From: a virus | Taxonomy: Duplodnaviria > Heunggongvirae > Uroviricota > Caudoviricetes | DNA length: 21,173 nt | IMG/VR virus record: IMGVR_UViG_2660238548_000014 | Span: 1 to 21,173 of that record | Direction: 5' to 3' (one strand) | Shown: one piece after another, positions 1,300 to 21,173 of the stretch | Numbering within the stretch: the stretch's first letter is position 1 | Layout of the letters: each line of letters opens with the position of its first letter | Notes under the pieces: model-generated | What the model was told of the DNA's origin: nothing | The model's database searches: none | The model's input: only the letters and a program-made list of their open reading frames with translations | Translations under genes and position numbers: made by a program

Positions 1300-1309
1300 G
1301 CTCACTCCT

Positions 1310-1936: not shown

Positions 1937-1949
1937 TTCCCTCTCCCCC

Positions 1950-1981
1950 AAATAAAAAGGCCTGCGATTACCAGCAGGCCT
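1950..1981 (-). terminator. rho-independent terminator (lambda tR2-like)
   Basis: On the minus strand: AGGCCTGC-TGGTAATC-GCAGGCCT hairpin followed by TTTTTATTT. Lies between ren and the next gene, as tR2 does in lambda. Confidence 0.6.
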
Positions 1982-2006
1982 GTTATTAGCTCAGTGATGT
2001 AGATGG

Positions 2007-2297: not shown

Positions 2298-2995
2298 ACA
2301 CTTGCTCCTTTCAGTCCGAACTTAGCTTTAATTTCTGCGATCTTCGCCAGCGCCTGAACACGATTTAGAGGTCTGCCGCCCATGACAGGAAGTTGTTTTA
2401 CTGGTTCAGGTATCGCCTCACCACGGTTAATTCGCGCTGTCATACAGGTCAGTTCATCGGCAGCCTTGCGTCGTAATTCCGCGTCAGTCAGCGCATTGGC
2501 CCGCATGTTCTGGTACAGGTTGGTAACCAGCCAGTAGTGCGCGTTCGATTTCCACGGATAAGACTCTGCATCCGGATACAGGCCTCGCTTCCGGCAATAC
2601 TCGTAAACCATATCAACCAGCTCGCTGACGTTTGGCAGTCCGGCGATAACGGATGCTTCTTCCCGGCACCATGCAACAAACTGCCCGGGTGATGGAAGAA
2701 ATGGTCGATTCTGCCGACGGGCTACGCGCATTCCTGCGTTAACCTGTTCCATCGAGGTGATCCCGTTTTCCCGGAAAGCCAGAACCCACTGGCGGCGGAT
2801 TTCGTTCACTTCGTTCTGGTCACGGTTAGCCAGGCTCGCCGGGAAAGTTGCCAGTAACTGGCTGAACACACCGTTGATGATCTGCGCTACCTGCTGTACC
2901 TGCGGCTTTTCGTCGTACTGTTCCGGCATGTTGTTGGCGATCCGACGCATCTGCTCACGGTCAAAGTTAACCATCTGTGCGGCGATGTTTTTCAT
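2294..2995 (-). CDS. P: replication protein P (DnaB helicase loader)
   Basis: 233-aa ORF MKNIAAQMVNFDREQMRRIANNMPEQYDEKPQ... matches lambda P in length and sequence as recalled. ATGA overlap with the O stop. Confidence 0.9.
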   Translation of the reverse strand: MKNIAAQMVNFDREQMRRIANNMPEQYDEKPQVQQVAQIINGVFSQLLATFPASLANRDQNEVNEIRRQWVLAFRENGITSMEQVNAGMRVARRQNRPFLPSPGQFVAWCREEASVIAGLPNVSELVDMVYEYCRKRGLYPDAESYPWKSNAHYWLVTNLYQNMRANALTDAELRRKAADELTCMTARINRGEAIPEPVKQLPVMGGRPLNRVQALAKIAEIKAKFGLKGASV

Positions 2996-3930: not shown

Positions 3931-3940
3931 AATGACTCCT

Positions 3941-4017
3941 GTTGATAGATCCAGTAATGACCTCAGAACTCCATCTGGATTTGTTCAGAACGCTCGGTTG
4001 CCGCCGGGCGTTTTTTA
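3941..4017 (+). ncRNA. oop: oop antisense RNA (overlaps cII 3' end)
   Basis: GTTGATAGATCCAGTAATGACCTCAGAACTCCATCTGGATTTGTTCAGAACGCTCGGTTGCCGCCGGGCGTTTTTTATT matches lambda oop as recalled. It ends in a GC hairpin plus T-run and has a -10 like CATAAT at 3928..3933. Confidence 0.75.
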
Positions 4018-4256
4018 TTGGTGAGAATCGCAGCAACTTGTCGCGCCAATCGAGCCATGTCGTCGTCAACGACCCCCCATTCAAGAACAGCAAGCAGCAT
4101 TGAGAACTTTGGAATCCAGTCCCTCTTCCACCTGCTGATCTGCGACTTATCAACGCCCACAGCTTCCGCTGTCTTCTCAGTTCCAAGCATTGCGATTTTG
4201 TTAAGCAACGCACTCTCGATTCGTAGAGCCTCGTTGCGTTTGTTTGCACGAACCAT
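3963..4256 (-). CDS. cII: transcriptional activator CII
   Basis: ATG at 4256. 97-aa product MVRANKRNEALRIESALLNKIAMLGTEKTAEAVGVDKSQISRWKRDWIPKF... matches lambda CII. The track ORF has a 20-aa spurious upstream extension. Confidence 0.9.
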   Translation of the reverse strand: MVRANKRNEALRIESALLNKIAMLGTEKTAEAVGVDKSQISRWKRDWIPKFSMLLAVLEWGVVDDDMARLARQVAAILTNKKRPAATERSEQIQMEF

Positions 4257-4335
4257 ATGTAAGTATTTCCTTAGATAACAATTGATTGAATGTATGCAAA
4301 TAAATGCATACACCATAGGTGTGGTTTAATTTGAT

Positions 4336-4367
4336 GCCCTTTTTCAGGGCTGGAATGTGTAAGAGCG
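4336..4367 (-). promoter_or_regulatory. nutR (boxB hairpin 4336..4350, boxA 4351..4367)
   Basis: Minus-strand CGCTCTTACACATTCCA (boxA) followed by GCCCTGAAAAAGGGC (boxB), between cro and cII as in lambda. Confidence 0.7.
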
Positions 4368-4374
4368 GGGTTAT

Positions 4375-4584
<210 letters not shown>

Positions 4585-4599
4585 TTAGTACATGCAACC

Positions 4600-4669
4600 A
4601 TTATCACCGCCAGAGGTAAAATAGTCAACACGCACGGTGTTAGATATTTATCCCTTGCGGTGATAGATT
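4600..4669. promoter_or_regulatory. OR1-OR2-OR3 operators with divergent pR (toward cro) and pRM (toward cI)
   Basis: 17-bp operators at 4602..4618 (OR1), 4626..4642 (OR2) and 4649..4665 (OR3). pR -10 GATAAT and -35 TTGACT on the minus strand (4600..4605, 4623..4628). pRM -35 TAGATA (4641..4646) and -10 TAGATT (4664..4669) on the plus strand. cI is leaderless (ATG at 4676). Confidence 0.85.
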
Positions 4670-4672
4670 TAA

Positions 4673-5389
<717 letters not shown>

Positions 5390-5501
5390 TCGGCAAGGTG
5401 TTCTGGTCGGCGCATAGCTGATAACAATTGAGCAAGAATCTTCATCGAATTAGGGGAATTTTCACTCCCCTCAGAACATAACATAGTAAATGGATTGAAT
5501 T

Positions 5502-6341
5502 ATGAAGAATGGTTTTTATGCGACTTACCGCAGCAAAAATAAAGGGAAAGATAAGCGCTCAATAAACCTGTCTGTTTTCCTTAATTCTCTGCTGGCTGAT
5601 AATCATCACCTGCAGGTTGGCTCCAATTATTTGTATATTCATAAAATCGATGGAAAAACTTTTCTCTTTACCAAAACAAATGACAAGAGTCTGGTTCAGA
5701 AGATAAATCGCTCTAAAGCTTCAGTTGAAGATATTAAGAATAGCCTCGCAGATGACGAATCATTGGGATTCCCATCTTTTTTGTTTGTTGAAGGCGACAC
5801 CATTGGTTTTGCCAGAACTGTTTTCGGGCCGACCACATCCGATCTGACAGATTTTTTAATCGGGAAAGGAATGTCATTAAGCAGTGGAGAGCGCGTTCAG
5901 ATAGAGCCACTGATGAGGGGAACCACCAAAGACGATGTTATGCATATGCATTTCATCGGCCGAACAACGGTGAAGGTAGAAGCCAAGCTACCTGTATTTG
6001 GCGATATATTAAAGGTCTTAGGGGCAACAGATATTGAAGGGGAGCTTTTTGACTCATTGGATATAGTCATTAAGCCAAAATTTAAAAGGGATATAAAAAA
6101 GGTTGCCAAGGATATTATTTTTAACCCGTCACCTCAATTTTCAGACATTAGCCTGCGGGCAAAAGATGAGGCCGGAGATATTTTAACAGAACATTATCTA
6201 TCAGAAAAAGGCCATCTCTCAGCGCCTCTGAACAAGGTCACCAATGCTGAGATAGCTGAAGAGATGGCATATTGCTACGCAAGAATGAAAAGTGATATAC
6301 TGGAATGTTTTAAAAGGCAGGTGGGCAAAGTTAAGGATTAA
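5502..6341 (+). CDS. rexA: RexA (abortive-infection/exclusion protein)
   Basis: 279-aa ORF directly downstream of cI, as in the lambda immunity operon. Sequence matches my recollection of RexA. Confidence 0.85.
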   Translation: MKNGFYATYRSKNKGKDKRSINLSVFLNSLLADNHHLQVGSNYLYIHKIDGKTFLFTKTNDKSLVQKINRSKASVEDIKNSLADDESLGFPSFLFVEGDTIGFARTVFGPTTSDLTDFLIGKGMSLSSGERVQIEPLMRGTTKDDVMHMHFIGRTTVKVEAKLPVFGDILKVLGATDIEGELFDSLDIVIKPKFKRDIKKVAKDIIFNPSPQFSDISLRAKDEAGDILTEHYLSEKGHLSAPLNKVTNAEIAEEMAYCYARMKSDILECFKRQVGKVKD

Positions 6342-6356
6342 TTATCAGGAGTAATT

Positions 6357-6791
6357 ATGCGGAACAGAATCATGCCTGGTGTTTACATAGTAATAATTCC
6401 TTACGTTATCGTAAGCATTTGCTATCTCCTTTTCCGCCACTACATTCCTGGTGTTTCTTTTTCAGCTCATAGAGATGGTCTTGGGGCGACATTGTCATCA
6501 TATGCAGGAACCATGATTGCAATCCTGATTGCTGCCTTGACGTTTCTAATCGGAAGCAGAACGCGCCGACTGGCCAAGATTAGAGAGTATGGGTATATGA
6601 CATCGGTAGTTATTGTCTATGCCCTTAGTTTTGTTGAGCTTGGAGCTTTGTTTTTCTGCGGGTTATTGCTTCTTTCCAGCATAAGCGGCTACATGATACC
6701 CACTATCGCCATCGGCATTGCCTCTGCATCGTTCATTCATATATGCATCCTTGTTTTCCAACTATATAATTTGACCAGAGAACAAGAATAA
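6357..6791 (+). CDS. rexB: RexB (membrane ion-channel component of Rex exclusion)
   Basis: 144-aa multi-pass hydrophobic protein following rexA. Length and position match lambda RexB. Confidence 0.85.
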   Translation: MRNRIMPGVYIVIIPYVIVSICYLLFRHYIPGVSFSAHRDGLGATLSSYAGTMIAILIAALTFLIGSRTRRLAKIREYGYMTSVVIVYALSFVELGALFFCGLLLLSSISGYMIPTIAIGIASASFIHICILVFQLYNLTREQE

Positions 6792-6817
6792 CCCGGCCTC
6801 AGCGCCGGGTTTTCTTT
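6792..6817 (+). terminator. rho-independent terminator after rexB (t-imm-like)
   Basis: CCCGGC-CTCAGC-GCCGGG hairpin followed by TTTTCTTTG, immediately after the rexB stop. Confidence 0.6.
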
Positions 6818-6964
6818 GCCTCACGATCGCCCCCAAAACACATAACCAATTGTATTTATTGAAAAATAAATAGATACAACTCACTAAACATAGCAATTCA
6901 GATCTCTCACCTACCAAACAATGCCCCCCTGCAAAAAATAAATTCATATAAAAAACATACAGAT

Positions 6965-7027
6965 AACCATCTGCGGTGATAAATTATCTCTGGCGGTGTT
7001 GACATAAATACCACTGGCGGTGATACT
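6965..7027 (+). promoter_or_regulatory. OL3-OL2-OL1 operators and pL promoter
   Basis: TATCTCTGGCGGTGTTGACATAAATACCACTGGCGGTGATACTGAGC. OL3 at 6965..6981, OL2 at 6985..7001, OL1 at 7009..7025, -35 TTGACA at 6999..7004, -10 GATACT at 7022..7027. Confidence 0.85.
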
Positions 7028-7066
7028 GAGCGCATCAGCAGGACGCACTGACCACCATGAAGGTGA

Positions 7067-7097
7067 CGCTCTTAAAAATTAAGCCCTGAAGAAGGGC
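7067..7097 (+). promoter_or_regulatory. nutL (boxA 7067..7082, boxB hairpin 7083..7097)
   Basis: CGCTCTTAAAAATTAA followed by GCCCTGAAGAAGGGC, downstream of the pL start. Confidence 0.75.
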
Positions 7098-7255
7098 AGC
7101 ATTCAAAGCAGAAGGCTTTGGGGTGTGTGATACGAAACGAAGCATTGGCCGGAAGTGCGATTCCGGATTAGCTGCCAATGTGCCAATCGCGGGGGGTTTT
7201 CGTTCAGGACTACAACTGCCACACACCACCAAAGCTAACTGACAGGAGAATCCAG

Positions 7256-7579
7256 ATGGATGCACAAACACGCCGCCGCGAACGTCGCGCAGAGAAACAG
7301 GCTCAATGGAAAGCAGCAAATCCCCTGTTGGTTGGGGTAAGCGCAAAACCAGTTAACCGCCCTATTCTCTCGCTGAATCGCAAACCGAAATCACGAGTAG
7401 AAAGCGCACTAAATCCGATAGACCTTACAGTGCTGGCTGAATACCACAAACAGATTGAAAGCAACCTGCAACGTATTGAGCGCAAGAATCAGCGCACATG
7501 GTACAGCAAGCCTGGCGAATGCGGCATAACATGCAGTGGACGCCAGAAAATTAAGGGAAAATCGATTCCTCTTATCTAG
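7256..7579 (+). CDS. N: antitermination protein N
   Basis: ATG at 7256 with an AGGAG RBS at 7244..7248. 107-aa MDAQTRRRERRAEKQAQWKAANPLL... with the arginine-rich boxB-binding N-terminus. The 133-aa track ORF is the historical over-extension. Confidence 0.9.
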   Translation: MDAQTRRRERRAEKQAQWKAANPLLVGVSAKPVNRPILSLNRKPKSRVESALNPIDLTVLAEYHKQIESNLQRIERKNQRTWYSKPGECGITCSGRQKIKGKSIPLI

Positions 7580-8131
7580 TTACTTAGATATTGGCCTTGG
7601 CTTTATCTCAATATTATATGGATCATAGCTGGCAACTAATTCAGTCCAGTAAATATCCTCAATAGGGAATAATATATGCTTCCCATTCCATCGGGAAAAA
7701 GTTTTGTTCAACACACCAAGCTCAATCAACTCACTAATGTATGGGAATTGTTTTGATGTAACCACATACTTCCTGCCTTCATTAAGGGCTGCGCACAAAA
7801 CCATAGATTGCTCTTCTGTAAGGTTTTGAATTACTGATCGCACTTTATCGTTTTGCATCTTAATGCGTTTTCTTAGCTTAAATCGCTTATATCTGGCGCT
7901 GGCAATAGCTGATAATCGATGCACATTAATTGCTAGCGAAAATGCAAGAGCAAAGACGAAAACATGCCACACATGAGGAATACCGATTCTCTCATTAACA
8001 TATTCAGGCCAGTTATCTGGGCTTAAAAGCAGAAGTCCAACCCAGATAACGATCATATACATGGTTCTCTCCAGAGGTTCATTACTGAACACTCGTCCGA
8101 GAATAACGAGTGGATCCATTTCTATACTCAT
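7580..8131 (-). CDS. sieB: superinfection exclusion protein B-like membrane protein
   Basis: ORF abutting the N stop on the opposite strand, as sieB does in lambda. Hydrophobic segments (IVIWVGLLLL, VFVFALAFSLAI). The first ATG is at 8131; the track starts at an upstream TTG. Confidence 0.65.
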   Translation of the reverse strand: MSIEMDPLVILGRVFSNEPLERTMYMIVIWVGLLLLSPDNWPEYVNERIGIPHVWHVFVFALAFSLAINVHRLSAIASARYKRFKLRKRIKMQNDKVRSVIQNLTEEQSMVLCAALNEGRKYVVTSKQFPYISELIELGVLNKTFSRWNGKHILFPIEDIYWTELVASYDPYNIEIKPRPISK

Positions 8132-8368
8132 CAAACTGTAGGGGTTGTAATAGTTTATCCGATTTCTCGCTGTAGGGGTACACGAGAACCACCGAGCCTG
8201 ATGTGGTTAAAAGACAGGCATACTAATAAACACTGCACTGTGTATTCATTCCAACGAGTGAATACACTGAGCAATGTCGCTCGTAACTAAACAGGAGCCG
8301 ACTTGTTCTGATTATTGGAAATCTTCTTTGCCCTCCAGTGTGAGGGCGATTTTTTTGACGGAGGATAT

Positions 8369-9337
8369 ATGAGTGAAGTAACAGATTTAGTTGTTATTGA
8401 AAAAGCAAATGCAATGACTGTATTTCAGTCTGCCGACCAGATTGAAGAAATCCTTCAAAAGGTTGAACGTGAAGTTATGTCCTTTGTGCCTGATATCACA
8501 ACGGCAAAGGGCAGAAAGGAGATCGCTTCTCTGGCGTATAAAGTTGCGCAGACGAAAACATATCTCGATGGTCTTGGCAAAGACCTTGTTGCTGAACTGA
8601 AGGAAATTCCAAAGCTAATTGATGCCAACCGCAAGACAGTGCGCGATCGCCTTGATGAACTGAAAGCCAAGGCACGCCAGCCTCTTACTGATTATGAGGA
8701 AGAACAGGCGCGAATTAAAGCCGAAGAAGAAGCTAAGGCAGCAGCTGAAGCTCTCGCAAAGCAAATTGAGTCTGACCATGAAATAGCGATTTTGATGGAT
8801 CGCGAATTTGACCGCCAAAGAGAAGAGGCAAGACTCAAAGCGGAGCAGGAAAAGCGAGAGCATGAAGAACGCTTAAAAAGAGAAGCTGAAGAGAAAGCCA
8901 GAGCAGAAGCCGAAGCAAAGGCAAAAGCCGAAATTGAAGCAGCAGCAAGGCGAGAAGCAGAAGCTAAGGCCGCAGCGGAACGTGCAGAGCGTGAACGCAT
9001 TGAAGCCGAGCAACGAGCACAGCGCGAAGCAAAAGAGGCAGCAGAACGAGCCGAAAGAGAAAAGCAGGCGGCAATTGAAGCAGAACGTAGAAAAGCACAG
9101 GAGGAGGCTGAACGAATCCGGCGCGAGGCTGAAGCAAAAGAGCAAGCCAGAATAGCAGAAGAAAAAAGAATCAAGGACGAAGAAGAGCGTAGAGCAAAGG
9201 ATAAAGCTCACCGGAAAGAAGTAAATAACAAAATACTTGCTGACCTTATCAAGTTTGGTGCATCAGAAGATGTTGCTAAAAATATCATAACAGCCATCGT
9301 AAAAGGCGAAGTATTCGCAACAAAAATAACCTACTAA
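8369..9337 (+). CDS. hypothetical coiled-coil protein with a long Glu/Ala/Lys/Arg-rich low-complexity region
   Basis: ATG at 8369 with a GGAGGA RBS. 322 aa with about 150 residues of EAKAKAEAEA/ERAERE-type repeats (TolA-like composition). First pL-operon gene after the lambda-like block. Confidence 0.6.
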   Translation: MSEVTDLVVIEKANAMTVFQSADQIEEILQKVEREVMSFVPDITTAKGRKEIASLAYKVAQTKTYLDGLGKDLVAELKEIPKLIDANRKTVRDRLDELKAKARQPLTDYEEEQARIKAEEEAKAAAEALAKQIESDHEIAILMDREFDRQREEARLKAEQEKREHEERLKREAEEKARAEAEAKAKAEIEAAARREAEAKAAAERAERERIEAEQRAQREAKEAAERAEREKQAAIEAERRKAQEEAERIRREAEAKEQARIAEEKRIKDEEERRAKDKAHRKEVNNKILADLIKFGASEDVAKNIITAIVKGEVFATKITY

Positions 9338-9361
9338 TAAAACCAACATAAGGAACCACCC

Positions 9362-9493
9362 ATGATTTACGCAATCGCGGGAGGCGCTCGCATGGGTGCC
9401 TTCCAATTAAATGAATCTTTACTTGAACGAATCACCCGTAAATTACGTGACGGATGGAAAAGAGTTGAGGTCTTATTATGCGCAATGAAATAG
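9362..9493 (+). CDS. small hypothetical protein (43 aa)
   Basis: ATG preceded by AAGGAACC. Below the 60-aa track cut-off; called only from manual translation. Confidence 0.3.
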   Translation: MIYAIAGGARMGAFQLNESLLERITRKLRDGWKRVEVLLCAMK

Positions 9494-9630
9494 CCATTAA
9501 TCACCAGATGCTTCGTGCGGCACAAAACAAAGCAGTAATAGCCAGATTTATTGGTGATTCAAAAATGTGGCTTGAAGCAAATAAAGCAATGAAATCAGCT
9601 ATCAACCTTCCGTGGTATCGCAGGAAATGA
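9478..9630 (+). CDS. small hypothetical protein (50 aa)
   Basis: ATG at 9478. Its stop overlaps the next ATG (ATGA), suggesting translational coupling. Confidence 0.3.
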   Translation: MRNEIAINHQMLRAAQNKAVIARFIGDSKMWLEANKAMKSAINLPWYRRK

Positions 9631-9797
9631 GTTTTACAGATAACTGGTCAGACGAAGAATTCATTCGTCAGATGAAAGATTTAATCGGTAACGAAGGAGA
9701 TATTCATGTCACTTGCAACCACAGTGAAGGAGAGCAAGTTACAGAGACGCATGTACACGCAGCAGGCGTTAATGTATCGCCAGAATGGAGATCGTGA
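9627..9797 (+). CDS. small hypothetical protein (56 aa)
   Basis: ATG at 9627 with an AGGA 3 nt upstream. Sits within a GTG-initiated 61-aa track ORF. Confidence 0.4.
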   Translation: MSFTDNWSDEEFIRQMKDLIGNEGDIHVTCNHSEGEQVTETHVHAAGVNVSPEWRS

Positions 9798-9886
9798 AGG
9801 TGTTCGCGTATTTTTAAATGCGGCAAAGACTGAAGTATTAAATAAGCGTTATTTCCTTGGGCCGTGTCCATTCTGAGAACAAACAT

Positions 9887-10492
9887 ATGAGCAAAGAATT
9901 TTACGCAAAACTGGCAGCTATTCAGGAGAACTTGAATGCGCCAAAGAATCAGTACAACTCATTCGGTAAATATAAATACAGAAGCTGCGAAGACATTCTT
10001 GAAGGCGTTAAGCCGTTACTGAACGGTCTGTTTTTATCAATCAGCGATGAAGTTGTGTTGATTGGTGATCGGTATTACGTGAAAGCCACGGCAACTATTA
10101 CCGATGGCGAAAACAGTCATACGGCAACCGCTCTTGCACGAGAGGAAGAAAGCAAGAAAGGAATGGATTCTGCACAAGTTACGGGAGCCACAAGCTCTTA
10201 TGCACGCAAGTATTGCCTCAATGGTTTGTTCGGCATTGATGATGCGAAAGATGCAGATACCGACGAGCATAAACATCAGCAGAACGCAGCAGCAAAGCAA
10301 TCAAAACCATCACCTACACCTGAACAGGTTCTAAAAGCATTCACTGACGCAGCAATGCAGAAAAACACCGTAGAAGAGCTTAAACAGGCGTTCGCCAAAG
10401 CGTGGAAGATGCTCGAAGGCACACCGGAGCAGCACAAAGCGCAGGACGTTTACAACATCAGACGAGACGAATTAGAAGGAGCGGCTGCTTAA
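9887..10492 (+). CDS. erf: Erf-family single-strand annealing (recombination) protein
   Basis: The motifs FGKYKYRSCEDILEGV and ATSSYARKYCLNGLFGIDD match the conserved ERF-superfamily signatures (P22 Erf-like). ATG at 9887. Confidence 0.75.
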   Translation: MSKEFYAKLAAIQENLNAPKNQYNSFGKYKYRSCEDILEGVKPLLNGLFLSISDEVVLIGDRYYVKATATITDGENSHTATALAREEESKKGMDSAQVTGATSSYARKYCLNGLFGIDDAKDADTDEHKHQQNAAAKQSKPSPTPEQVLKAFTDAAMQKNTVEELKQAFAKAWKMLEGTPEQHKAQDVYNIRRDELEGAAA

Positions 10493-10875
10493 TGGCACAT
10501 TCGATTACAGTAAGACTAAACAAACCCGCAAGAGAGTTTCAGGCCGGGGAAAATATCGGATTCAACATCCGTGCTGGCGTTCAGTATTACGATCGCCAGA
10601 CAAAAAAGAAAGAATGGACAAACTACAGCGCCGTTGTATTTGCCAAGCCGGGAGCGCAAGCGGATTACTACCGTAGTGTTCTTGTTGAAGGTAGCATTGT
10701 AGAAATTACCGGAGAAAACATCAGGGTTGATGTTTATCAGGGGCAAAATGGTCAATCAATCACTCTTGAATTACTGAATGCAAAGATTGGATTTGCAGCT
10801 TCAGGAAATGGCCCGCAGCAGCAAAGTAGTAACCATCAGAACACTCCTGTTTACGACGATTCCATCCCATTCTGA
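10492..10875 (+). CDS. phage single-stranded DNA-binding protein (SSB-like, acidic C-terminal tail)
   Basis: ATG overlaps the erf stop (TAATG). The 127-aa product ends in DDSIPF, resembling the DDDIPF tail of SSB proteins. Position next to erf fits a recombination module. Confidence 0.65.
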   Translation: MAHSITVRLNKPAREFQAGENIGFNIRAGVQYYDRQTKKKEWTNYSAVVFAKPGAQADYYRSVLVEGSIVEITGENIRVDVYQGQNGQSITLELLNAKIGFAASGNGPQQQSSNHQNTPVYDDSIPF

Positions 10876-10898
10876 TTTAGAACAATAAGGATTTAATT

Positions 10899-11192
10899 AT
10901 GCCAGCGCCTCTGTATGGTGCGGACGACGTGCGCCGCTGTTCCGGCAATTCCGTATCGGAGGTGCTGGATAAATTCAGAAAAAACTACGCCCGGATAATG
11001 TCGCTACCGCAGGAAACGAAAGAGGAAAAGGAATTTCGCCACTGTATATGGCTTGCAGAGAAAGAAGAGCGCGAGCGAATTTACCAGACATCAATCCGAC
11101 CATTCCGCAAAGCCACATATACCCACTTCCCTGAAATTGACCCGCGCCTGCGTAATTACCGCTCACGCTATGGCGCTATCAGTAATGACTGA
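10899..11192 (+). CDS. hypothetical protein
   Basis: 97-aa ORF with an AAGGA RBS 8 nt upstream. No recognised motif. Confidence 0.55.
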
Positions 11193-11202
11193 GGAATTTA
11201 CC

Positions 11203-11370
11203 ATGAGAGGACTTGCATACAATCCCGGCATTCTTCCGGCAGAAATGATTATTCGCCAACGCGTAAAGCCAATGCCATCGAGAGAGGAATTGCTTAAGAG
11301 AAACTCTTTTCCATCAGTGAATCAAAACAAATATCTGAATGCGATGTGGCGTAAAGGAGGCAAGCAGTGA
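11203..11370 (+). CDS. small hypothetical protein (55 aa)
   Basis: ATG at 11203 with a GAGGA RBS. Its stop overlaps the GTG start of the next gene. Confidence 0.45.
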
Positions 11371-12314
11371 GCGAAATTAATTATCAGGCACTGCGTGAAA
11401 AGGCAGAGAAAGCAACTAAAGGAAGCTACATCGTAGGGCATACATCTGTTAACCAGCACGGCAATTTAACAGGAGTTTTTGTTTGTCAAAAATGGAAAGG
11501 AGAACCCGGTGGCGTGATTGCAGAATGTCATGTTAACTGCCTGGTTGAAACAGATGCTCAGGCTTACGCAAACGCTGAATTTATTGCTGCCTTTAATCCA
11601 AATGTTGCGCTGGCGCTTCTGGATGAACGGGAAAGAAACCAGCAATACATCAAACGCCGCGACCAGGAGAACGAGGATATTGCGCTTACGGTAGGGAAGC
11701 TGCGCGTTGAGCTTGAAGCAGTAAAATCAAAACTCAACGAGCAGCGTGAATATTACGAGGGAGTAATCGCGGATGGAAGTAAGCGCATAGCAGAACTGGA
11801 AAAACAATGCGCCGAATGGGAGCGAAAAGCATTAAGCAACTTTGAAGAGTGTGCTGCGATGGCTGAACGTATCGAAGAGATGCAGACAAAATCTGCACCA
11901 GATTCGTTTGGCATCATCGGTGAAAATATTCGAACACAGGACAATCGAATAACGTCAGATCCCATGTTTTGTGTGTATCAAAAGCGCGAAATTGTTGTTG
12001 ATGCTGATTATGACCATGACCGGATTGTCTGGGTTGACGAAGATGGCAATGAAGCCAATAAACGCCATAGTCGTCGTCTCGAGCTACTTCATGAAAACTT
12101 TCGAGAGCCACCAGAAAAATGGCGGCGCGTTGCTGTGAAAGATATTGATGAATTCGTTACCTGCTGTTTCACCGAACAGGGTTGTAAAGACTACCTGGCA
12201 GTCAATGGTCACAATCTTCGCTTGCCATTTATATATGTAAAAAGCGGTTTCAGGAACGCTGAATATATCGGCATAAGAAACTGGCTTGCTGGCATTCGCA
12301 TCAAAGGAGAGTGA
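11367..12314 (+). CDS. Ead/Ea22-like protein
   Basis: GTG start preceded by a strong AAGGAGG RBS. The N-terminus [19 protein letters not shown] resembles the conserved start of Ead/Ea22-family prophage proteins, with a coiled-coil middle. Confidence 0.6.
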
Positions 12315-12315
12315 T

Positions 12316-12831
12316 ATGGCGTTAACACACCGCGAACTCTGTCAGATTGCGTACAAGTTCCTTAAGCGCAACGGGTTCAAGGTTTGTTTTCATGACCGCT
12401 TTATAGCTGTAACCAGTACCGGAGAACAGCCAGATGCTATGGGATTCAGAAATTCAGCATCATGCCTGATAGAGGCGAAATGTTCTCGTGCTGACTTGTT
12501 GGCAGATAGAAAAAAGCGTTTTCGTAAAAATCCGTCTCTTGGAATGGGCGACTGGCGATTCTTTATTAGTGAGCCGGGAATTATTTCAATTGAGGATTTA
12601 CCACCTGGCTGGGGATTACTTCACGTTGTTAACGGAAGAGTACGGAAAGTACATGGGTGGCCCAAGGGTAATTGCTGTTGGGGTAATCCTGACGATAAGC
12701 CATTTACTGGAAATAAGCAGGTTGAATGCGATTACATGTTGTCTGCATTAAGGCGCATGGAGTTGAGAGGGCACCTTAATGAAATATATGACGGTGTAAT
12801 TGTTAATAAGAAAGAAGGAAACGCGGCATGA
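12316..12831 (+). CDS. hypothetical protein with a putative PD-(D/E)xK nuclease motif
   Basis: ATG at 12316 with an AAGGAGAG RBS. Contains EQPD...CLIEAKC, a D...ExK arrangement typical of the PD-(D/E)xK fold. Called from the motif only. Confidence 0.5.
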   Translation: MALTHRELCQIAYKFLKRNGFKVCFHDRFIAVTSTGEQPDAMGFRNSASCLIEAKCSRADLLADRKKRFRKNPSLGMGDWRFFISEPGIISIEDLPPGWGLLHVVNGRVRKVHGWPKGNCCWGNPDDKPFTGNKQVECDYMLSALRRMELRGHLNEIYDGVIVNKKEGNAA

Positions 12832-13184
12832 CCACTATTACCGACAAAGAACTGATTAAAGAAATCAAAGAGCGCATAGGCAGCTTGGACGTTCGAGACA
12901 ATATTGAGCGCCGTGCTTATGAAATTGCACTGGCATCGCTGGAAGCAGAACCGATAGCGTGGGAATGCGGTGAAAACATAATCCTGTTTAACCCTGACAC
13001 AGTTGAAGCATACGCAAAACGTGCGGAAATATCACCTAAACCACTATTCTCCGCGCCGCCAGCGCTGGTAGTGCCTGATAAGTTGCCGCGTGAATACAGA
13101 AACGGTTGGCCTCTTGCGTATAGTGATTATGCTGAAGGCTGGAACGACTGCCGCGAAGCCATGCTTCAGGGAGATAAATCATGA
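12828..13184 (+). CDS. hypothetical protein
   Basis: 118-aa ORF with ATGA overlap to the upstream gene and an AAGGAA RBS. Confidence 0.55.
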   Translation: MTTITDKELIKEIKERIGSLDVRDNIERRAYEIALASLEAEPIAWECGENIILFNPDTVEAYAKRAEISPKPLFSAPPALVVPDKLPREYRNGWPLAYSDYAEGWNDCREAMLQGDKS

Positions 13185-13546
13185 TTAATCGTATCAAGCT
13201 GGAGCACATCCTCGAATATGCCAGGCAGCAGAGGCATATTGGTCAGCATTGTAAAATTCCACCAGTAGATATGGTTGAAATCATGGAGATTGCCATGCGC
13301 AAGGCTGGCAACTCTCCGGTAACTCCGGATGGTTGGATAAGCTGTAGTGAGCGAATGCCGGAAAAGAATCAGAGCGTGCTTATTTCGGTGAATTTCGATA
13401 GCTCTCTGGTTGAGCCGCTAATATGCTCTGCACGCTATACCGGAAGTACATTCCGGCGTGGAGATGTAACGATTAAGCCGGGCAATGGTGTTGAGCAGGT
13501 AACACACTGGATGCAGCTACCAGAACCGCCGCAGGAGGTGAAATGA
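13181..13546 (+). CDS. DUF551-like prophage protein
   Basis: The motifs WISCSERMPE and HWMQLPEPP resemble the DUF551 signature common in enterobacterial prophages. ATGA overlap upstream. Confidence 0.55.
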   Translation: MINRIKLEHILEYARQQRHIGQHCKIPPVDMVEIMEIAMRKAGNSPVTPDGWISCSERMPEKNQSVLISVNFDSSLVEPLICSARYTGSTFRRGDVTIKPGNGVEQVTHWMQLPEPPQEVK

Positions 13547-13879: not shown

Positions 13880-14014
13880 ATGCATACGGCTTTTGAGTTC
13901 TGGGTTCGCAAGACATTCGGCAATCGCTACGACCTGCCCCGTGATGTTGACGGCTTCTACTGCCGTGAAGTTGTGAAACGAATGTTTGACGTGTGGTGCC
14001 ACTGCCGTGGATGA
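13880..14014 (+). CDS. small Cys-rich hypothetical protein (44 aa)
   Basis: ATG preceded by GGAGGTG. Product contains FYCRE...WCHCRG. Below the track cut-off. Confidence 0.35.
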   Translation: MHTAFEFWVRKTFGNRYDLPRDVDGFYCREVVKRMFDVWCHCRG

Positions 14015-14032
14015 ACGTTTTATGAGGTAACT

Positions 14033-14248
14033 ATGGCTCTCAACATTGATTGCGTACCTATAACGACATGGTGTCGAGATATGGGAGAAACGCTGGATGC
14101 CGTTAACAAACGGTTACAACGTGGAGTATGGAAGGAAGGGGTTCAGGTTTTAAATGTGGAAGGCTCCAAAGAACGATGGATTGATTTAACTGAGGTTTCA
14201 AAATGGGCGAGAAAAAACAAATATCCTTATCACTCCCAAGAGGAATAA
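14033..14248 (+). CDS. xis: excisionase-like protein
   Basis: 71-aa basic protein immediately upstream of, and overlapping, the integrase gene, with a GAGGT RBS. The position is canonical for xis; no family assignment was possible. Confidence 0.5.
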   Translation: MALNIDCVPITTWCRDMGETLDAVNKRLQRGVWKEGVQVLNVEGSKERWIDLTEVSKWARKNKYPYHSQEE

Positions 14249-15375
14249 CAATTCGTCAATACAAGAATTGCTCTACATTAGTTGTAACCTTCACATATAA
14301 AGGGGTTCTTTGCAGAGAACCCTTACCCAGGCTGGAAGCTAACGCAAAGGGGATTAAGTATGCTGAACGGCTTCTAGGAGAAATAAAAAACCAAATCAGT
14401 GATGATTCATTCGATTTTTCAAAATACTTTCCAAACTCTAGGAAGCTGGCATTATTTGGAATGGTAAAGAAAAATAAAAGTGTGAGAGATTACCTAGATG
14501 AGTATCTGGAAATTTGCAAAAACAGAAAGTTATCACCTTCAACAATAAATGGATATGAAAAATGCGTATCTGCATTATCTGAACTACATAAGCTACATGT
14601 TGTTGACCTGACACCAGCAATATTAAAAAAATGGATCTCAAAAAGAACAACAAAACTTAAGACCATAAGAAACAATCTATCATTTTTAAGAAGTGCAGTA
14701 GATGAAGCGGTCACTGACGGACTTATAACGATAAATCCTGTAAAACTGGTTAGTGCAAGTAGATACCATGCGGTTAACCATACAGCCAATACTGATGATT
14801 ATGAAGTGGATCCATTCACACCAGCAGAGGCAACAGCTATCTACAACGCCTGTCTTTATCAGGAATGGAGAAATCTTTTTTGTTTCGCATTCAATACAGG
14901 CCTACGAAGCTCAGAATTATGTGCATTGCGTTGGTCTGATATTGATTTTATTGGGCATACCGTTCACGTACAGGTCGCTTCTGTCGTTGGTGTGATAAAA
15001 GGAACCAAAACAAAAGCTGGTACCAGAAAAGTTGAATTAAACAATGAAGCTATAATGGCATTACAGGCCCAGAAATCATTTACGATGATGAGAAGTGATT
15101 TTGTATTCAGTGATCCAAAAACACGCAAGCCGTGGGCTAATTCAGCTGCGATTCGTAAGAAAGCCTGGCTCCCGACTCTTAAAAAGGCCGGAGTTCGTTA
15201 CCGCAATCCATATCAGACTAGACATACATTCGCTACACGGCATATCAGCCAGGGGGCAAATTTATTCTGGCTTGCCGGTCAAATGGGACACAAAGGACCA
15301 GAAATGCTGTTTAGACACTATGGTTCATATTTATCAGAATATGATGGCAAGACTGCGATCTCAGAAGTAATCTAG
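14203..15375 (+). CDS. int: tyrosine-type site-specific integrase (prophage int)
   Basis: 390-aa ORF with the tyrosine-recombinase C-terminal catalytic region (..RHTFATRHISQGANLFWLAGQMGHKGPEMLFRHYGSY..). It overlaps xis and is followed by the att core. Confidence 0.85.
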   Translation: MGEKKQISLSLPRGITIRQYKNCSTLVVTFTYKGVLCREPLPRLEANAKGIKYAERLLGEIKNQISDDSFDFSKYFPNSRKLALFGMVKKNKSVRDYLDEYLEICKNRKLSPSTINGYEKCVSALSELHKLHVVDLTPAILKKWISKRTTKLKTIRNNLSFLRSAVDEAVTDGLITINPVKLVSASRYHAVNHTANTDDYEVDPFTPAEATAIYNACLYQEWRNLFCFAFNTGLRSSELCALRWSDIDFIGHTVHVQVASVVGVIKGTKTKAGTRKVELNNEAIMALQAQKSFTMMRSDFVFSDPKTRKPWANSAAIRKKAWLPTLKKAGVRYRNPYQTRHTFATRHISQGANLFWLAGQMGHKGPEMLFRHYGSYLSEYDGKTAISEVI

Positions 15376-15509
15376 CCGCTTAAATATTTCAAAATATGTA
15401 CTAAGGTAGGACAGAGAATAGACTCCAACTTACACCTGAAATACATAAAAACATCTAGAAATAATATGAAATCTTTTGTTTTTCATATCGTTATGTAACT
15501 TGGGTGTTT

Positions 15510-15535
15510 GGGTTCAACTCCCGCCAGCTCCACCA
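15510..15535 (+). other. attachment-site core: 26-nt copy of the 3' end of ssrA (tmRNA), not an intact gene
   Basis: GGGTTCAACTCCCGCCAGCTCCACCA matches the 3'-terminal T-arm and acceptor sequence of E. coli tmRNA as I recall it. Sequence immediately upstream does not match ssrA. Confidence 0.75.
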
Positions 15536-15571
15536 CTTTTTAGTTGTTTGAAGTTCAATGAAGTCTACTAA

Positions 15572-15603
15572 GCCCACACAGCACAAGCTCTGCGGGCTTT
15601 TTT
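15572..15603 (+). terminator. putative rho-independent terminator downstream of the ssrA fragment
   Basis: Imperfect GC-rich hairpin (GCCCACA...CTCTGCGGGC) followed by TTTTTT. Confidence 0.4.
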
Positions 15604-15700
15604 ACGTCTATTGTCGTCCAGTGAGAATTGCTGAGAACTACGAGTTATGGCACCCTGAATGGGACCCACTAAGAAGGGTCCAAAAACCGAGGGTCCCAAA

Positions 15701-16930
15701 ATGGCAAAAATCGCTAAGAAGCTCACTGACACTGAAATCAAAAGCACCAAGCCAGCCGATAAAGAAATCAACTTGTTTGACGGTGATGGTCTGATTCTAC
15801 GAATCGCTCCTTTGGCGAAAGGAGGCAAGAAAAATTGGTATTTCAGGTATGCAGTACCAGTGAGCAAGAAAAGAACCAAAATGAGCCTTGGGACATATCC
15901 TCACCTTACCCTTGCAAGAGCCAGAGCCTTACGTGATGAATATCTCTCCTTTCTGGCAAATGGTGTTGATCCCCAAATCCATAACAACGATAAGGCGAAG
16001 GCATTAAAGAGTGCTACTGAGCACACTCTCCAAGCCGTAGCGCGGAAATGGTTAGATGAGAAGGTAAAGACATCAGGTATCTCACAAGACCATGCAGCAG
16101 ACATCTGGCGCAGCTTAGAGAGAAATGTCTTTCCCGGTCTGGGTAATGTCCCTATCAATGAGATCCGACCTAAGCTCTTAAAACAACACCTTGATCCTAT
16201 TGAGCAACGAGGCGTATTGGAAACTCTACGCCGTATCATTTCACGTCTGAATGAAATCTTCCGGTGGGCAGCTACTGAAGAACTTATTGAGTTCAACCCG
16301 GCTGACAACCTTGGTCAAAGATTCAGTAAACCAAAAAAGCAAAATATGCCTGCCCTTCCCCCAAGCGAATTGCCAAGGTTTATGGAATCTTTGACGAATG
16401 CGTCAATCCGGTTGGAAACACGTATGCTAATTGAATGGCAATTGTTGACATGGGTTCGTCCGGGTGAAGCCGTTCGCGCAAGGTGGTCTGATATTGATAC
16501 AACCAACAGCATTTGGAACATTCCTGCTGATTTCATGAAAATGAAAAAGCTTCACAAAGTTCCTTTGAGTAAAGAAGCTTTGCGCATCCTTGAATTAATG
16601 AAATCAATAAGTGGGCATAGAGAATGGGTTTTCCCCAGCATAAAAGCGCCTCTTAATCATATGCATGAACAAACAGCCAACGCAGCTATCATCCGAATGG
16701 GGTTCGGAGGCGAGCTTGTAGCTCACGGTATGCGTTCTATTGCACGAACAGCGGCAGAGGAGTCTGGTAAATTCAGAGCTGAAGTTCTTGAGGCAGCGCT
16801 TGCCCACTCGAAAAAAGATGAAATTATCGCAGCATACAATCGTGCAGAATATCTGATAGAGCGACAGAGTTTGATGCAATGGTGGAGTGATTACGTTCAA
16901 GCTCAAAGATCAAATGCTCTGGTAGCCTAA
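15701..16930 (+). CDS. intA: P4/CP4-57-type tyrosine integrase
   Basis: The N-terminus MAKIAKKLTDTEIKSTKP...DGDGLILRIAP..WYFRY resembles the arm-binding domain of IntA-type integrases, and the C-terminus has VAHGMRSIARTA and ALAHS. It lies just downstream of the ssrA 3' end, as intA does in K-12. ATG at 15659 is an alternative start. Confidence 0.85.
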   Translation: MAKIAKKLTDTEIKSTKPADKEINLFDGDGLILRIAPLAKGGKKNWYFRYAVPVSKKRTKMSLGTYPHLTLARARALRDEYLSFLANGVDPQIHNNDKAKALKSATEHTLQAVARKWLDEKVKTSGISQDHAADIWRSLERNVFPGLGNVPINEIRPKLLKQHLDPIEQRGVLETLRRIISRLNEIFRWAATEELIEFNPADNLGQRFSKPKKQNMPALPPSELPRFMESLTNASIRLETRMLIEWQLLTWVRPGEAVRARWSDIDTTNSIWNIPADFMKMKKLHKVPLSKEALRILELMKSISGHREWVFPSIKAPLNHMHEQTANAAIIRMGFGGELVAHGMRSIARTAAEESGKFRAEVLEAALAHSKKDEIIAAYNRAEYLIERQSLMQWWSDYVQAQRSNALVA

Positions 16931-16968
16931 GTATCAGAATAGCTAATATAATCCTGAAGGTAAAGAAA

Positions 16969-17385
16969 ATGGAAACCCTATTCAAAGTTTTTGAAAAATT
17001 TAGTTCCAGACCACTTTTTTTTATTTTTTTCGGACTCTCACTTTGTGAATTTTTTCAGAAACAATCTGTTCTGATGAATCCATCAGCAGATAACATCGCG
17101 AAATTATTCGCAGCCATGATATTAGTTGTTTTTTTTACTTGGGGATTTGAATGGCTAATCTTCAAGTTCAATGTAAACCTTGAACCTCATGATCAAGGCG
17201 ATATTGGACCAACAATTGGAACGGCTACTTTAGCTGTATACTTAGTTTATGCCTTTCACTTTCTCAGTGAAAATCCTGAAGCATTAAATTTAAAGTTATT
17301 AACTAACTCTGGCTTTATATACAGCACAACTCTATTATTATTCTCATTAGAATGCATGAAGCTTAGAAGACTTAAACAAAAATAA
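16969..17385 (+). CDS. hypothetical small membrane protein
   Basis: 138-aa ORF with a GAAGG RBS, several hydrophobic helices, AT-rich codon usage. Convergent with the two-gene module. Confidence 0.55.
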   Translation: METLFKVFEKFSSRPLFFIFFGLSLCEFFQKQSVLMNPSADNIAKLFAAMILVVFFTWGFEWLIFKFNVNLEPHDQGDIGPTIGTATLAVYLVYAFHFLSENPEALNLKLLTNSGFIYSTTLLLFSLECMKLRRLKQK

Positions 17386-17456
17386 ACAACATCATTGTGA
17401 TGATAAATATAAAATAGGCATGGCGAAAAAAAATCACCACGCCTAAAATATAATAA

Positions 17457-19205
17457 TTATGGTAGCATCATTGATACATAATCCACACCAATCCTTGAGC
17501 TATACTGAGACGCTATAGCCTGATATCTTTCTGCATAACCAGTTCTCAGTTGAGATTTAAGTTTGAGTCGGACAGGAACATTTTGCACGTTGCCATCCAT
17601 ATTACTTAAAAACACGGCAGAAATAATATTTTTTTCTTCGCCATCAACTGTTGTTCCATGATTCAACACCACCATATAATCAACAACAGGAAGCGTTTTA
17701 TCCCCTTCGAAAATAGAGAGATATTTTCTTTGATTTTTATGCATTACATATATATATTTCGAATATTCAGCAAATGGCAATGCTTTACTCTGACTGGCGT
17801 TAAAAAGCTCCAGAACTTTAATGAGCCTGTGCGGACTTAATCTTACATGGTGAGGGTCGTTACCCTGAGTAGGAACCAAATCACATGCCGCAGATACACA
17901 TAAATACCATTTGTTCGACTCTGTATCAAAGAAAATAGTGCCAGTAGAAATATGACCATCTTCAAAATTCTTTGAAGACAAATTCATATTTAAAGCATGA
18001 TACATTTCGTGATAAGTATCATTATTTGATGGCAGATCCATTTTTGAAGAGCAATATTGGAGCAATGCAGCAACTCCGCTGTTAGCGTATTCATTTGAAT
18101 AGCTATCAAAAACACTTTTGATAAATTCATCCAGCGTATTATTATTTTTAAGTCTTTGATAAAGCTCTTCTGATAAATTACCAAATACAAAGTCAATATT
18201 TCTACATCTAATATCAGGCGAGTCTGATTTTAATATCTCATTTAACCACGCAGCTTGACCGTAATGATCGTTAGCCAAATGATTTACAAAAGATAAAGCC
18301 TCAGCTTCGATTGCATTCTGAATTTCAGATTTTATTAACTGATAATAAGATGGTTTCCATTCAATGAGAGAATCATTGAGAGTTTGCCAAATCCTATCTC
18401 CATCGTTTTCATGATCATCTTGAACCTTATGAAATAGGGAGACAAAGATATTACCACATTGAATCCATTTTACTCCGCTTTCATCACCCCGAATGACATT
18501 GCCAGATGTGTTGCTAGAAATAATTGCATTTCTAGACACAGCATATTCTGCAATCATTTTTGCAATGAAGTTTTTATCCTTTTGATCCTCCAACACAGCA
18601 TCATCATGTATTAATCTTTTAATTCTTCTACAAGGCTTACTGTCTTTAATATAGGCTATTGTTTCATCTCTTGTGAGAGCTTTATTACCATTATCATTTA
18701 AGTTCGGTAATACAACGTCTTCCCAATAACTTTGGACATCTTCATTATCGTAGTCAATGATCAAGCTGTTGATATCCAGAGCACCTTTGAGAGTCGATGA
18801 TATCTGCATCCAAACCGTTTCTAAATTCTCTCTAGTATATATTACAATCATATTTAAATGATCGGAGTCTTTCAAATCTTGTAATAGTTTAAGTGTTTTA
18901 TCAGGTGCATTATTATCAAGATGATAATCTACAATAATAAGATCTGATTTTCTAATCCGATCCACATCGAAATTAACAGAACCATTGTCAACATCACAAA
19001 TCATATTTTTAGATTGAAAAAAGCTCTCAAGAGTAGCGGCTCGTTTAGATGAGTCAATTTTGTTGTAGTCTAAATCAACTTCGTTATTCAACGCCCTGAT
19101 TGATTCAGAATACGTCAGAAAATCGTCATCAATCATGACAACGGAACGAATTGCATTTTCGCAGAAAGTTTTCTGGACAAGAGAATTATAATTTGCCACT
19201 GTCAT
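17457..19205 (-). CDS. receiver (REC)-like domain protein with ~430-aa C-terminal domain of unknown function
   Basis: The likely start is the ATG at 19205 (GGAG 7 nt upstream), 1 nt after the upstream stop. The N-terminus has receiver-like elements: SVVMIDDD, DLIIVDYHL (candidate phospho-acceptor Asp) and NMIVIYT. The remainder has no motif I recognise. Confidence 0.65.
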   Translation of the reverse strand: MTVANYNSLVQKTFCENAIRSVVMIDDDFLTYSESIRALNNEVDLDYNKIDSSKRAATLESFFQSKNMICDVDNGSVNFDVDRIRKSDLIIVDYHLDNNAPDKTLKLLQDLKDSDHLNMIVIYTRENLETVWMQISSTLKGALDINSLIIDYDNEDVQSYWEDVVLPNLNDNGNKALTRDETIAYIKDSKPCRRIKRLIHDDAVLEDQKDKNFIAKMIAEYAVSRNAIISSNTSGNVIRGDESGVKWIQCGNIFVSLFHKVQDDHENDGDRIWQTLNDSLIEWKPSYYQLIKSEIQNAIEAEALSFVNHLANDHYGQAAWLNEILKSDSPDIRCRNIDFVFGNLSEELYQRLKNNNTLDEFIKSVFDSYSNEYANSGVAALLQYCSSKMDLPSNNDTYHEMYHALNMNLSSKNFEDGHISTGTIFFDTESNKWYLCVSAACDLVPTQGNDPHHVRLSPHRLIKVLELFNASQSKALPFAEYSKYIYVMHKNQRKYLSIFEGDKTLPVVDYMVVLNHGTTVDGEEKNIISAVFLSNMDGNVQNVPVRLKLKSQLRTGYAERYQAIASQYSSRIGVDYVSMMLP

Positions 19206-19206
19206 A

Positions 19207-20925
19207 TTAGAACTCCACTCCATTGAACTGGATCACAAAATTAGCGCCATCTTTTATTAAATAGTTATCGCCTTCATCAGGTTCTAAATACCATATTTTA
19301 TGATGTGCAACAGCAAGGTTTTCTCGACATAGATACAGACCTACCCCATGTCCATTTGCTCTTTTGCTATAAAATAGTTCAAATAGTCGCGGGATATCAT
19401 CGGTATCAATTGCCGGACCAGAATTTGCTATGATAACCAAAGAATTCACAAAACCAATCTTTATGAGCCTATTATTTGACAGACTGACCCAATACATTGC
19501 ATTGTTGATAATATTAGTAAAAACAGGATAGATCCTTGATGGTATATCTGTTATTGCGATTTGCTTAAACTCTTCACTAAATTCAATAGTTATTCGTTGC
19601 CGTTCGAAACGCTCCCCAAAGAACTTCAGGACATAATCCATGATATTTTTTCCAGTTATTCTCTGCCTGGATTGATAACCTGATATTTTCAAAGGTGATA
19701 AGAAACGTATTTGTTGAGTAAGCGATCTGTGAGCATTTAACGCCAATGAAAAACCAGGGTGTTCTTTTACAGAAGTAGGAAGAGAGTTTAGTCCTCTGGT
19801 TACCATAGAATCCATTTCTTCAAGTTCATGAGATATTATCTCAACACTAATACCTAACTGTGCAAGCGCGTTTAAACTTTTAGCTTTTTCTTCAAAATAT
19901 GAGCGTTCTTCTTCAGATAATGAGAATGCTGAATCTAAGTTTATACCTTCAAATAATCTATCGAGACCTTTTATTATTGATTGATATTTGAAAGTTAGGG
20001 TATCAACTGACTCAACATATAAACTATCGAGCAAATTAAACACATTTTCAATTTGTGAATCATTATCTATTGAATCAACAACTGATATAGTTTTAGCATA
20101 ATAATCACTTCGATCAACCTTTATTTCATCGGCCCATTTTTTTAAAAGAGAATGTATCTTCTCCTCTATCGTGTTATTAAACTTAGTTAGTTTAGAATTA
20201 ATAATACCTTGATTTTTTTCAAGGTGATTTTTCGCTGACAATGAAGGCTCAAGTTTATTTAATTCAGAATCAAGTTTATTAATTGCTAACTTCATTTGTA
20301 GAATATACGCAGAGAACTCATTAAATTTATCTCTGTAGTCTCTATATTTCTCTTCATACATTCCAAGTTTTGGAGGTTTGATAGGCGTTTTAATTTCACT
20401 GCGCAACGCATCTAAGTTTGTAAGATCACTGTCTATAATTTTAAGATAGTTTAAATCTAACGAACCATCAGTTTTATCAAGCTTAGTTTTCAGCCTTTTA
20501 ACAGCCTCCAAGGAAGCATCAAGAACTGGTGTCTGATTCTTCAAAGCTTCTGAAAAACTTTTTTGTGTTGATTTTCGAGCTTGTTGTTGAGCAGATTTTC
20601 TTAACTCTTTTTCACGCTTAACTTGTTCTAAAAGCTCTTTACGGTCATCAGAACGTGAACCAAAAAATCTATCAGCAAGTTCAGTTAACAAATTAGATAT
20701 AATAGTTTTCAGTTCTCTTGCAGCCTGGTTTCTTATGAATCCCTCTCTCCCCGACTTATCTTTCAGCTCTTTATTACTGGATTGAGTAATTCCAATATAA
20801 CCAAAAATCCTTCTATTAGACCAATAATATCGCCCTGCATTCCATGAACGTCTTTCTTCTATCTGGAAGAAATCATTATCTACTCGACCATAAGGTAATA
20901 CTCTCAAGCTATCCCTAAAAATCAT
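19207..20925 (-). CDS. cytoplasmic histidine-kinase-like ATPase; 5' end probably truncated by IS3
   Basis: H-box-like EIISHELEE (His codon at 19828..19830), N-box RIYPVFTNIINNAMYW, G1/F-box IIANSGPAID...LFELFYS and G2-box GHGVGLYLCREN, in canonical order and spacing. No transmembrane segment. The frame stays open upstream of the first ATG as far as 21046, with no start codon. Confidence 0.7.
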   Translation of the reverse strand: MIFRDSLRVLPYGRVDNDFFQIEERRSWNAGRYYWSNRRIFGYIGITQSSNKELKDKSGREGFIRNQAARELKTIISNLLTELADRFFGSRSDDRKELLEQVKREKELRKSAQQQARKSTQKSFSEALKNQTPVLDASLEAVKRLKTKLDKTDGSLDLNYLKIIDSDLTNLDALRSEIKTPIKPPKLGMYEEKYRDYRDKFNEFSAYILQMKLAINKLDSELNKLEPSLSAKNHLEKNQGIINSKLTKFNNTIEEKIHSLLKKWADEIKVDRSDYYAKTISVVDSIDNDSQIENVFNLLDSLYVESVDTLTFKYQSIIKGLDRLFEGINLDSAFSLSEEERSYFEEKAKSLNALAQLGISVEIISHELEEMDSMVTRGLNSLPTSVKEHPGFSLALNAHRSLTQQIRFLSPLKISGYQSRQRITGKNIMDYVLKFFGERFERQRITIEFSEEFKQIAITDIPSRIYPVFTNIINNAMYWVSLSNNRLIKIGFVNSLVIIANSGPAIDTDDIPRLFELFYSKRANGHGVGLYLCRENLAVAHHKIWYLEPDEGDNYLIKDGANFVIQFNGVEF

Positions 20926-21046: not shown

Positions 21047-21173
21047 TGATCCTACCCACGTAATATGGACACAGGCCTAAGCGAGGTTCTTGTTTTCAAA
21101 TTGTTCCGGACTGAGGCCGCCACACCAACTGTGCCGCCGCCACCGATTGTAATCACATTCGATATAATTAAAC
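21047..21173 (-). mobile_element. IS3 element, right end (terminal inverted repeat plus 3' end of transposase orfB); continues beyond the window
   Basis: Plus strand from 21047 reads TGATCCTACCCACGTAATATGGACACAGGCCTAAGCGAGG..., matching the IS3 terminal repeat as recalled. The minus-strand translation ends ...[31 protein letters not shown]-stop. Confidence 0.75.
21077..21173 (-). CDS. IS3 transposase OrfB (InsF-like), C-terminal fragment
   Basis: The minus-strand frame gives ...[31 protein letters not shown] with its stop at 21079..21077. The N-terminal part is outside the window. Confidence 0.7.

Follow-up and report, generated by a model that had tools for sequence, protein, structure and literature searches.

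A short 3' fragment of ssrA between a lambdoid prophage integrase and a P4-type integrase islet in Escherichia coli

The stretch of DNA analysed here (21,173 nt, hereafter the window) contains two integrase genes on the + strand, and positions 15376..15700 are exactly the intergenic space between them. The first gene (14203..15375, +) encodes a lambda-type tyrosine integrase of 390 aa that reads toward the att junction. It carries the Pfam domains Arm-DNA-bind_2, Phage_int_SAM_5 and Phage_integrase, its catalytic domain aligns to solved tyrosine recombinases, and its DNA is 100% identical in the E. coli strains 8E and 2013C-3342. Its start is overlapped by the prophage excisionase gene (14033..14248, +; 71 aa). 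As this ORF had no Pfam or NCBIfam match, the assignment rests on its position and on RefSeq naming: the identical sequence is called 'excisionase' (WP_071827872.1) in two RefSeq genomes. Both ORFs are intact in the window and we infer that the prophage may be competent for excision. The closest phage integrases were those of the PhiR12 phages (74% nucleotide identity), and matches to PhiR12 phages and phi467, at 71-74%, are confined to the integrase body. Among free phages, none was found to combine this integrase with an attP bearing the ssrA fragment, and in PhiR12_1 the vicinity of int contains no ssrA core at up to 3 mismatches.

The DNA to the left of these genes is lambdoid. Positions 1..11802 match phage lambda with 98.9% identity in pieces (nin, P, O, cI, rexAB, bet, exo) and Stx1a-converting phages with 97-98% identity, likewise in pieces. 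The early gene order that defines a lambdoid prophage is present, namely nin, P, O, cII, cro, cI, rex, N, recombination genes, xis and int toward att, and the pL-side genes run to xis, int and att as they do in lambda. The left end of the window is located inside the prophage; the ssrA-proximal junction and the late region lie beyond it. The immunity region (approximately 4025..8135; cI, rexA, rexB, N) is about 98.9% identical to lambda and the backbone flanking it is more than 99% identical to the Stx1a prophage of strain 2013C-3342. Judged from these identities, the lambda-type immunity region is a module swap relative to the 2013C-3342 prophage. When the whole window was compared by megablast with 5,426 complete E. 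coli genomes, none covered at least 80% of it; the prophage of the source strain is a different mosaic, whose exact combination occurs in no complete E. coli genome of this collection.

Inspection of the window without database searches (the sequence-only reading) had proposed that an exact copy of the tmRNA 3' end lies between the two integrases. Alignment bears this out: positions 15510..15535 (GGGTTCAACTCCCGCCAGCTCCACCA) are the exact last 26 nt of the 363-nt ssrA gene as annotated in E. coli O111:H8 8E, and similarity to the 8E gene has a sharp boundary, being gone upstream of 15510. The match is unique in the window with up to 3 mismatches allowed, and it was found in 0 of 100 dinucleotide-preserving shuffles. 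The 26 nt span the last three bases of the 5' T-stem strand, the T loop TTCAACT, the 3' T-stem strand, the 3' acceptor strand and CCA. They begin 134 nt past the stop codon of the phage integrase and end 165 nt ahead of the start of the P4-type integrase. This position agrees with the Islander definition of an integrative element, in which a tyrosine integrase lies inside the element beside one att junction, as does the presence of Phage_integrase and an arm-binding domain in the phage enzyme. The reading of the 26 nt as a fragment and not as the gene was equally confirmed, since neither ARAGORN nor Rfam at gathering score detected a tmRNA or tRNA gene in the window, and a permissive Rfam scan returned a sole tmRNA trace of 7.9 bits that is 5'-truncated and ends at 15535.

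Upstream of the fragment lies the phage arm of the int-side att site (15376..15509, +), which is A+T-rich, has no ssrA similarity and contains one GGACA at 15409 as well as an inverted repeat (ATATGAAA/TTTCATAT). The arm diverges among three integrase variants, with short blocks kept. An attP rebuilt from both junctions contains five copies of GGAC[A/T] that all point the same way, where 0.4 would be expected; the motif was picked after looking. Such GGACA-like motifs are candidate arm-type sites, and the motif and inverted repeat of the phage arm may act as arm-type or accessory-protein sites.

The second integrase (15701..16930, +; 409 aa, start as annotated by RefSeq) had been described as unrelated to the first and as a P4-type enzyme of the kind that normally follows ssrA, a description that stands on every point. 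The two proteins share 20% amino-acid identity in a global alignment. The enzyme carries the domain set by which P4-type integrases are recognised, i.e. Arm-DNA-bind_3 (= DUF4102), Phage_int_M and the tyrosine recombinase catalytic domain (Phage_integrase), all three above the Pfam cut-off, and it scores 440.6 bits with NCBIfam NF007246 (cut-off 434). Its amino-acid sequence is 47% identical to that of IntA, the CP4-57 integrase found after ssrA in K-12, and in 962 of the 5,426 complete genomes whole ssrA is directly joined to this island integrase or a relative.

The P4-type islet, as opposed to core chromosome, begins at 15540. Its left end (15540..15700, +) contains an intrinsic terminator, recognised by terminator scan and fold, with a stem at 15570..15599 followed by a T run; the terminator (15570..15604) and the sequence around it have their homologue in the spacer between ssrA and intA within K-12 CP4-57. 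In strain 503025 and others, 15540..15700 joins intact ssrA directly with 100% identity, and in prophage-free strains the islet terminator serves ssrA. Downstream of the integrase, within 16969..20925, the islet carries a 138-aa hypothetical gene (+) and, identified by Pfam, genes for a Response_reg_2 (PF19192) protein (17457..19223, -) and a HEF_HK (PF19191) plus HATPase_c protein (19207..20925, -). Response_reg_2/HEF_HK pairs are two-component-like, paraMORC-related and associated with restriction-modification loci (PMC8011034); no PADLOC defence-system model matched the islet cargo. The kinase-like cargo gene is intact in the window and has an internal stop in 8E.

Just beyond the cargo, at about 21047..21173, lies terminal sequence of IS3. 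A total of 484 complete E. coli genomes, the prophage-free strain 503025 among them, share this junction of islet and IS3 with 100% identity; in 2013C-3342 and 8E, the islet abuts a truncated ygaQ-like pseudogene and not IS3. Local alignment of the ssrA tail on the correct strand found no distal att repeat of the islet between the cargo and glaH, and a 13-nt near-match inside glaH is on the wrong strand and was taken as chance. Because it is without a distal att repeat, the islet is probably an old, immobilised remnant. The strict definition of a tandem array gives each member its own integrase and its own displaced fragment; here, both integrases are present and the islet fragment is absent. 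Since no distal repeat is detectable, the phrase 'tandem integrative elements' describes the history of the islet and not two mobile units, one member of the array having decayed.

The terminator behind the fragment allows for another reading of the space between the integrases, according to which fragment and terminator would together form a functional gene for a small RNA akin to Salmonella IsrM instead of an inert att scar. The Rfam IsrM model (RF02763) aligns to 15470..15603 (+) with E = 6e-14 and near-identity in its last ~90 positions, a weak promoter-like site (15436..15465) precedes the terminator at 15570..15604, and IsrM sits between STM2762 and STM2763 in Salmonella LT2. However, the score of 53.1 bits compares with a gathering score of 376, about 208 of the 329 model positions are deleted, the shared part is no more than a (degenerate) remnant of the ssrA 3' end together with the terminator carried by the island, and the fold of the terminator is not unusual (z = -1.0). 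A functional RNA gene thus appears very unlikely, and membership in the IsrM family was rejected given that score and the alignment of only the 3' quarter of the model. The likeness suggests that Salmonella IsrM may be transcribed across an equivalent att junction ahead of an island integrase.

The same junction occurs in other genomes. Four complete genomes share the region 14000..17500, with 100% identity in O111:H8 8E and 2013C-3342, 99.9% in EH031 and 98.4% in FHI_NMBU_11. The full locus layout was inspected in 8E and 2013C-3342. The left part comprises in both smpB, intact ssrA, a DinI-like gene, tail and head genes, stx1a and Q, and the right part the early region, xis, int, the 26-nt fragment, the P4-type integrase, the hypothetical gene, the Response_reg_2 protein, the ATP-binding protein, the truncated ygaQ-like pseudogene and glaH. 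The two prophage ends share a repeat of 30 bp corresponding to 15510..15539, i.e. the 26 nt followed by CTTT, with the copies separated by 35.7 kb in 8E and by 45.2 kb in 2013C-3342 and intact ssrA beside smpB at the far end. Positions 15510..15539 (+) are designated the att identity block of the prophage. The duplication of an att core, claimed from the window at 26 nt, is seen in both genomes; its length is 30 bp, not 26. The expected intact ssrA and second att copy at the distal prophage end were also present in 8E and 2013C-3342. For the window, an intact ssrA at its own prophage end is inferred from these relatives, because that end is outside the window. Taken across window and genomes, the combination by which Islander recognises an integration, an intact target and a 3' fragment in the same orientation, is found here, with the fragment in the window and intact ssrA plus the 30-bp repeat in the two genomes of identical junction. 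An observation on one of these elements concerns IS activity: at positions 12033..13246 of the 8E locus L001, in an ssrA prophage that is otherwise identical, IS1203 stands in place of the entire early, immunity and replication region, and int, xis and stx1a remain; this prophage is probably defective.

Two further phage lineages form the same junction before the same islet, one in strain A8 (87.6% identity to window positions 14000..17500) and one in STEC306-308 and STECUZB006 (approximately 75%). The 26 nt are invariant across the three divergent lineages and the phage arm has diverged, which is the pattern that would be expected of an integrase family dedicated to the ssrA target. In principle, the 26 nt could instead be the remnant of an ssrA gene cut by deletion or illegitimate rearrangement, since a gene fragment is all that the window contains and IS elements have been active here, namely IS1203 in the prophage of 8E and IS3 where the window ends. 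Against this, the boundary of the fragment does not vary among the three diverged phage lineages, the other prophage end bears whole ssrA with a perfect direct repeat of 30 bp, and int and xis immediately adjoin. We therefore give this explanation hardly any credence.

Drawing on sequence identity, gene families, the architecture of near-identical genomes and the population distribution, we conclude that the 26 nt are very probably the displaced ssrA 3' fragment at the int-proximal junction of a lambdoid prophage, which integrated site-specifically into the 3' end of the tmRNA gene and lies in tandem with the islet, as the member nearer to ssrA and the probable later arrival. In the proposed mechanism, the phage attP would carry the last 26 nt of ssrA plus CTTT, and recombination within the 30-bp block would rebuild a complete ssrA at the far (tail-fibre/DinI) end, leaving the original ssrA 3' fragment beside int. 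The crossover most likely occurs at the 7-nt T loop TTCAACT, between the GGG and CCC halves of the T stem. We place strand exchange there because integration at this T-loop sublocation of tRNA-like genes was reportedly established by Williams in 2002 (cited in PMC4383910). The former ssrA neighbour now found 3' of the fragment would be the small P4-type islet with its own terminator for ssrA, and as the fragment now precedes the islet, a two-member tandem array at ssrA results. The model predicts an attB in which the ssrA 3' end is joined to the window from 15540 onward, and an attP that consists of the window up to 15509, the core and AAGAAGGACTACAACCGG. At the ssrA end, a phage-supplied hairpin followed by a T run is found ~145 nt past CCA and plausibly replaces the displaced terminator.

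Serial insertion, with the prophage entering between ssrA and a pre-existing island, had been proposed from the window. The tandem arrangement itself is present in 8E and 2013C-3342; that the island came first is favoured by distribution only. The sequence does not reveal the order of arrival, as both orders lead to an identical product. In the reverse sequence of events, the prophage would have entered ssrA first, and the islet would later have used the att copy displaced to the int end as its insertion site. For P4-type ssrA integrases, the psaA fragment of K-12 CP4-57 indicates a likely core made up of the final 14-15 nt of ssrA. This core is nested within the 26-nt fragment, and the displaced copy could therefore act as a target; a second element can indeed enter either regenerated core (PMC7192596). 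The distribution speaks against this order. The islet or its relatives abut ssrA directly in the 962 genomes mentioned above and the islet integrase region occurs in ~1,186, whereas the prophage junction was found in only 9 genomes. Moreover, the islet with its IS3-flanked far end is invariant in the 484 genomes that include prophage-free 503025, and its lack of a distal repeat and its position next to truncated ygaQ suggest an old, immobilised element. In prophage-free genomes, the stretch similar to the window starts precisely at 15510 and continues without a gap from the complete ssrA, a state that precise prophage excision would yield as well. The reverse order is thus unlikely. With an islet that is widespread and uniform and a rare junction occupied by mosaic prophages, it is likely that the islet came first and the prophage later. 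Probably some two hundred genomes carry an insertion between ssrA and the islet, a rough figure derived from two counts made with different queries.

The nested cores lead to a more speculative proposal. The P4-type integrase probably recognises the final ~15 nt of ssrA. As this core is now present at both prophage ends, the islet integrase could act on the prophage. That the two integrases interact in this way, the islet enzyme excising, inverting or mobilising the prophage without phage Int/Xis, or that fragment and terminator are expressed as an IsrM-like, junction-born sRNA, is in our view highly improbable.

That tRNA and tmRNA genes harbour tandem arrays is textbook knowledge, and such arrays of integrative elements are reportedly the subject of 'Traffic at the tmRNA gene' (Williams, 2003, cited in PMC4383910). 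No integration target is more enriched than the tmRNA gene; tandem arrays have been catalogued and their mechanism described (PMC4383910, PMC7192596). Like the arrays in Islander and TIGER, the locus has one intact target followed by elements with own integrases, separated by displaced 3' fragments; unlike in the strict Islander definition, which requires an own fragment for each member, only the prophage has one. The gene was already recognised in 2007 as the integration site of Stx phages in O111 strains (Ogura et al. 2007, PMC2323221); later work lists ssrA as a Stx-phage site and notes a non-Stx phage at ssrA in O111:H8. The ssrA lambdoid prophages of O111/STEC (NZ_CP077465, NZ_CP027766) are alike in integrase, excisionase, att fragment and islet, with 100% identity over 14000..17500, as well as in target gene, orientation and 30-bp repeat. 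The window differs in having the lambda-type immunity region (about 4025..8135) where 2013C-3342 has its own. CP4-57 of K-12 resembles the islet in its P4-type integrase (47% amino-acid identity), which follows ssrA at a distance of ~200 nt and in the same orientation, and in the homologous spacer terminator. In contrast to the islet of ~5.4 kb with its Response_reg_2/HEF_HK pair, CP4-57 has a size of 22 kb and different cargo, and it carries the 14-nt psaA pseudo-ssrA fragment at its far end, a counterpart of which was not found for the islet. Furthermore, the islet in the window is separated from ssrA by a prophage.

The arrangement is already known, and the exact junction is present and annotated in RefSeq; it is the ordinary scar of a lambda-like prophage insertion at the end of E. 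coli ssrA, beside a probably older integrase-bearing island. The analysis fixes the prophage boundary at 15510..15539 and the integration site as ssrA, and it sets apart a separate, probably older islet from 15540 onward. This is of use for prophage delimitation and for typing of Stx-phage insertion sites, with little beyond correct annotation and no new biological question.

A side observation concerns the lambda-like part of the window. A lambda-internal 50-mer (8113..8162) matches assemblies of 22 unrelated species (loci L008-L029), among them Nocardioides, Shewanella, Pseudomonas, Paenibacillus and Bradyrhizobium, and some of the matching contigs have lengths of ~48.4-48.5 kb. These matches are almost certainly contamination with lambda control DNA.
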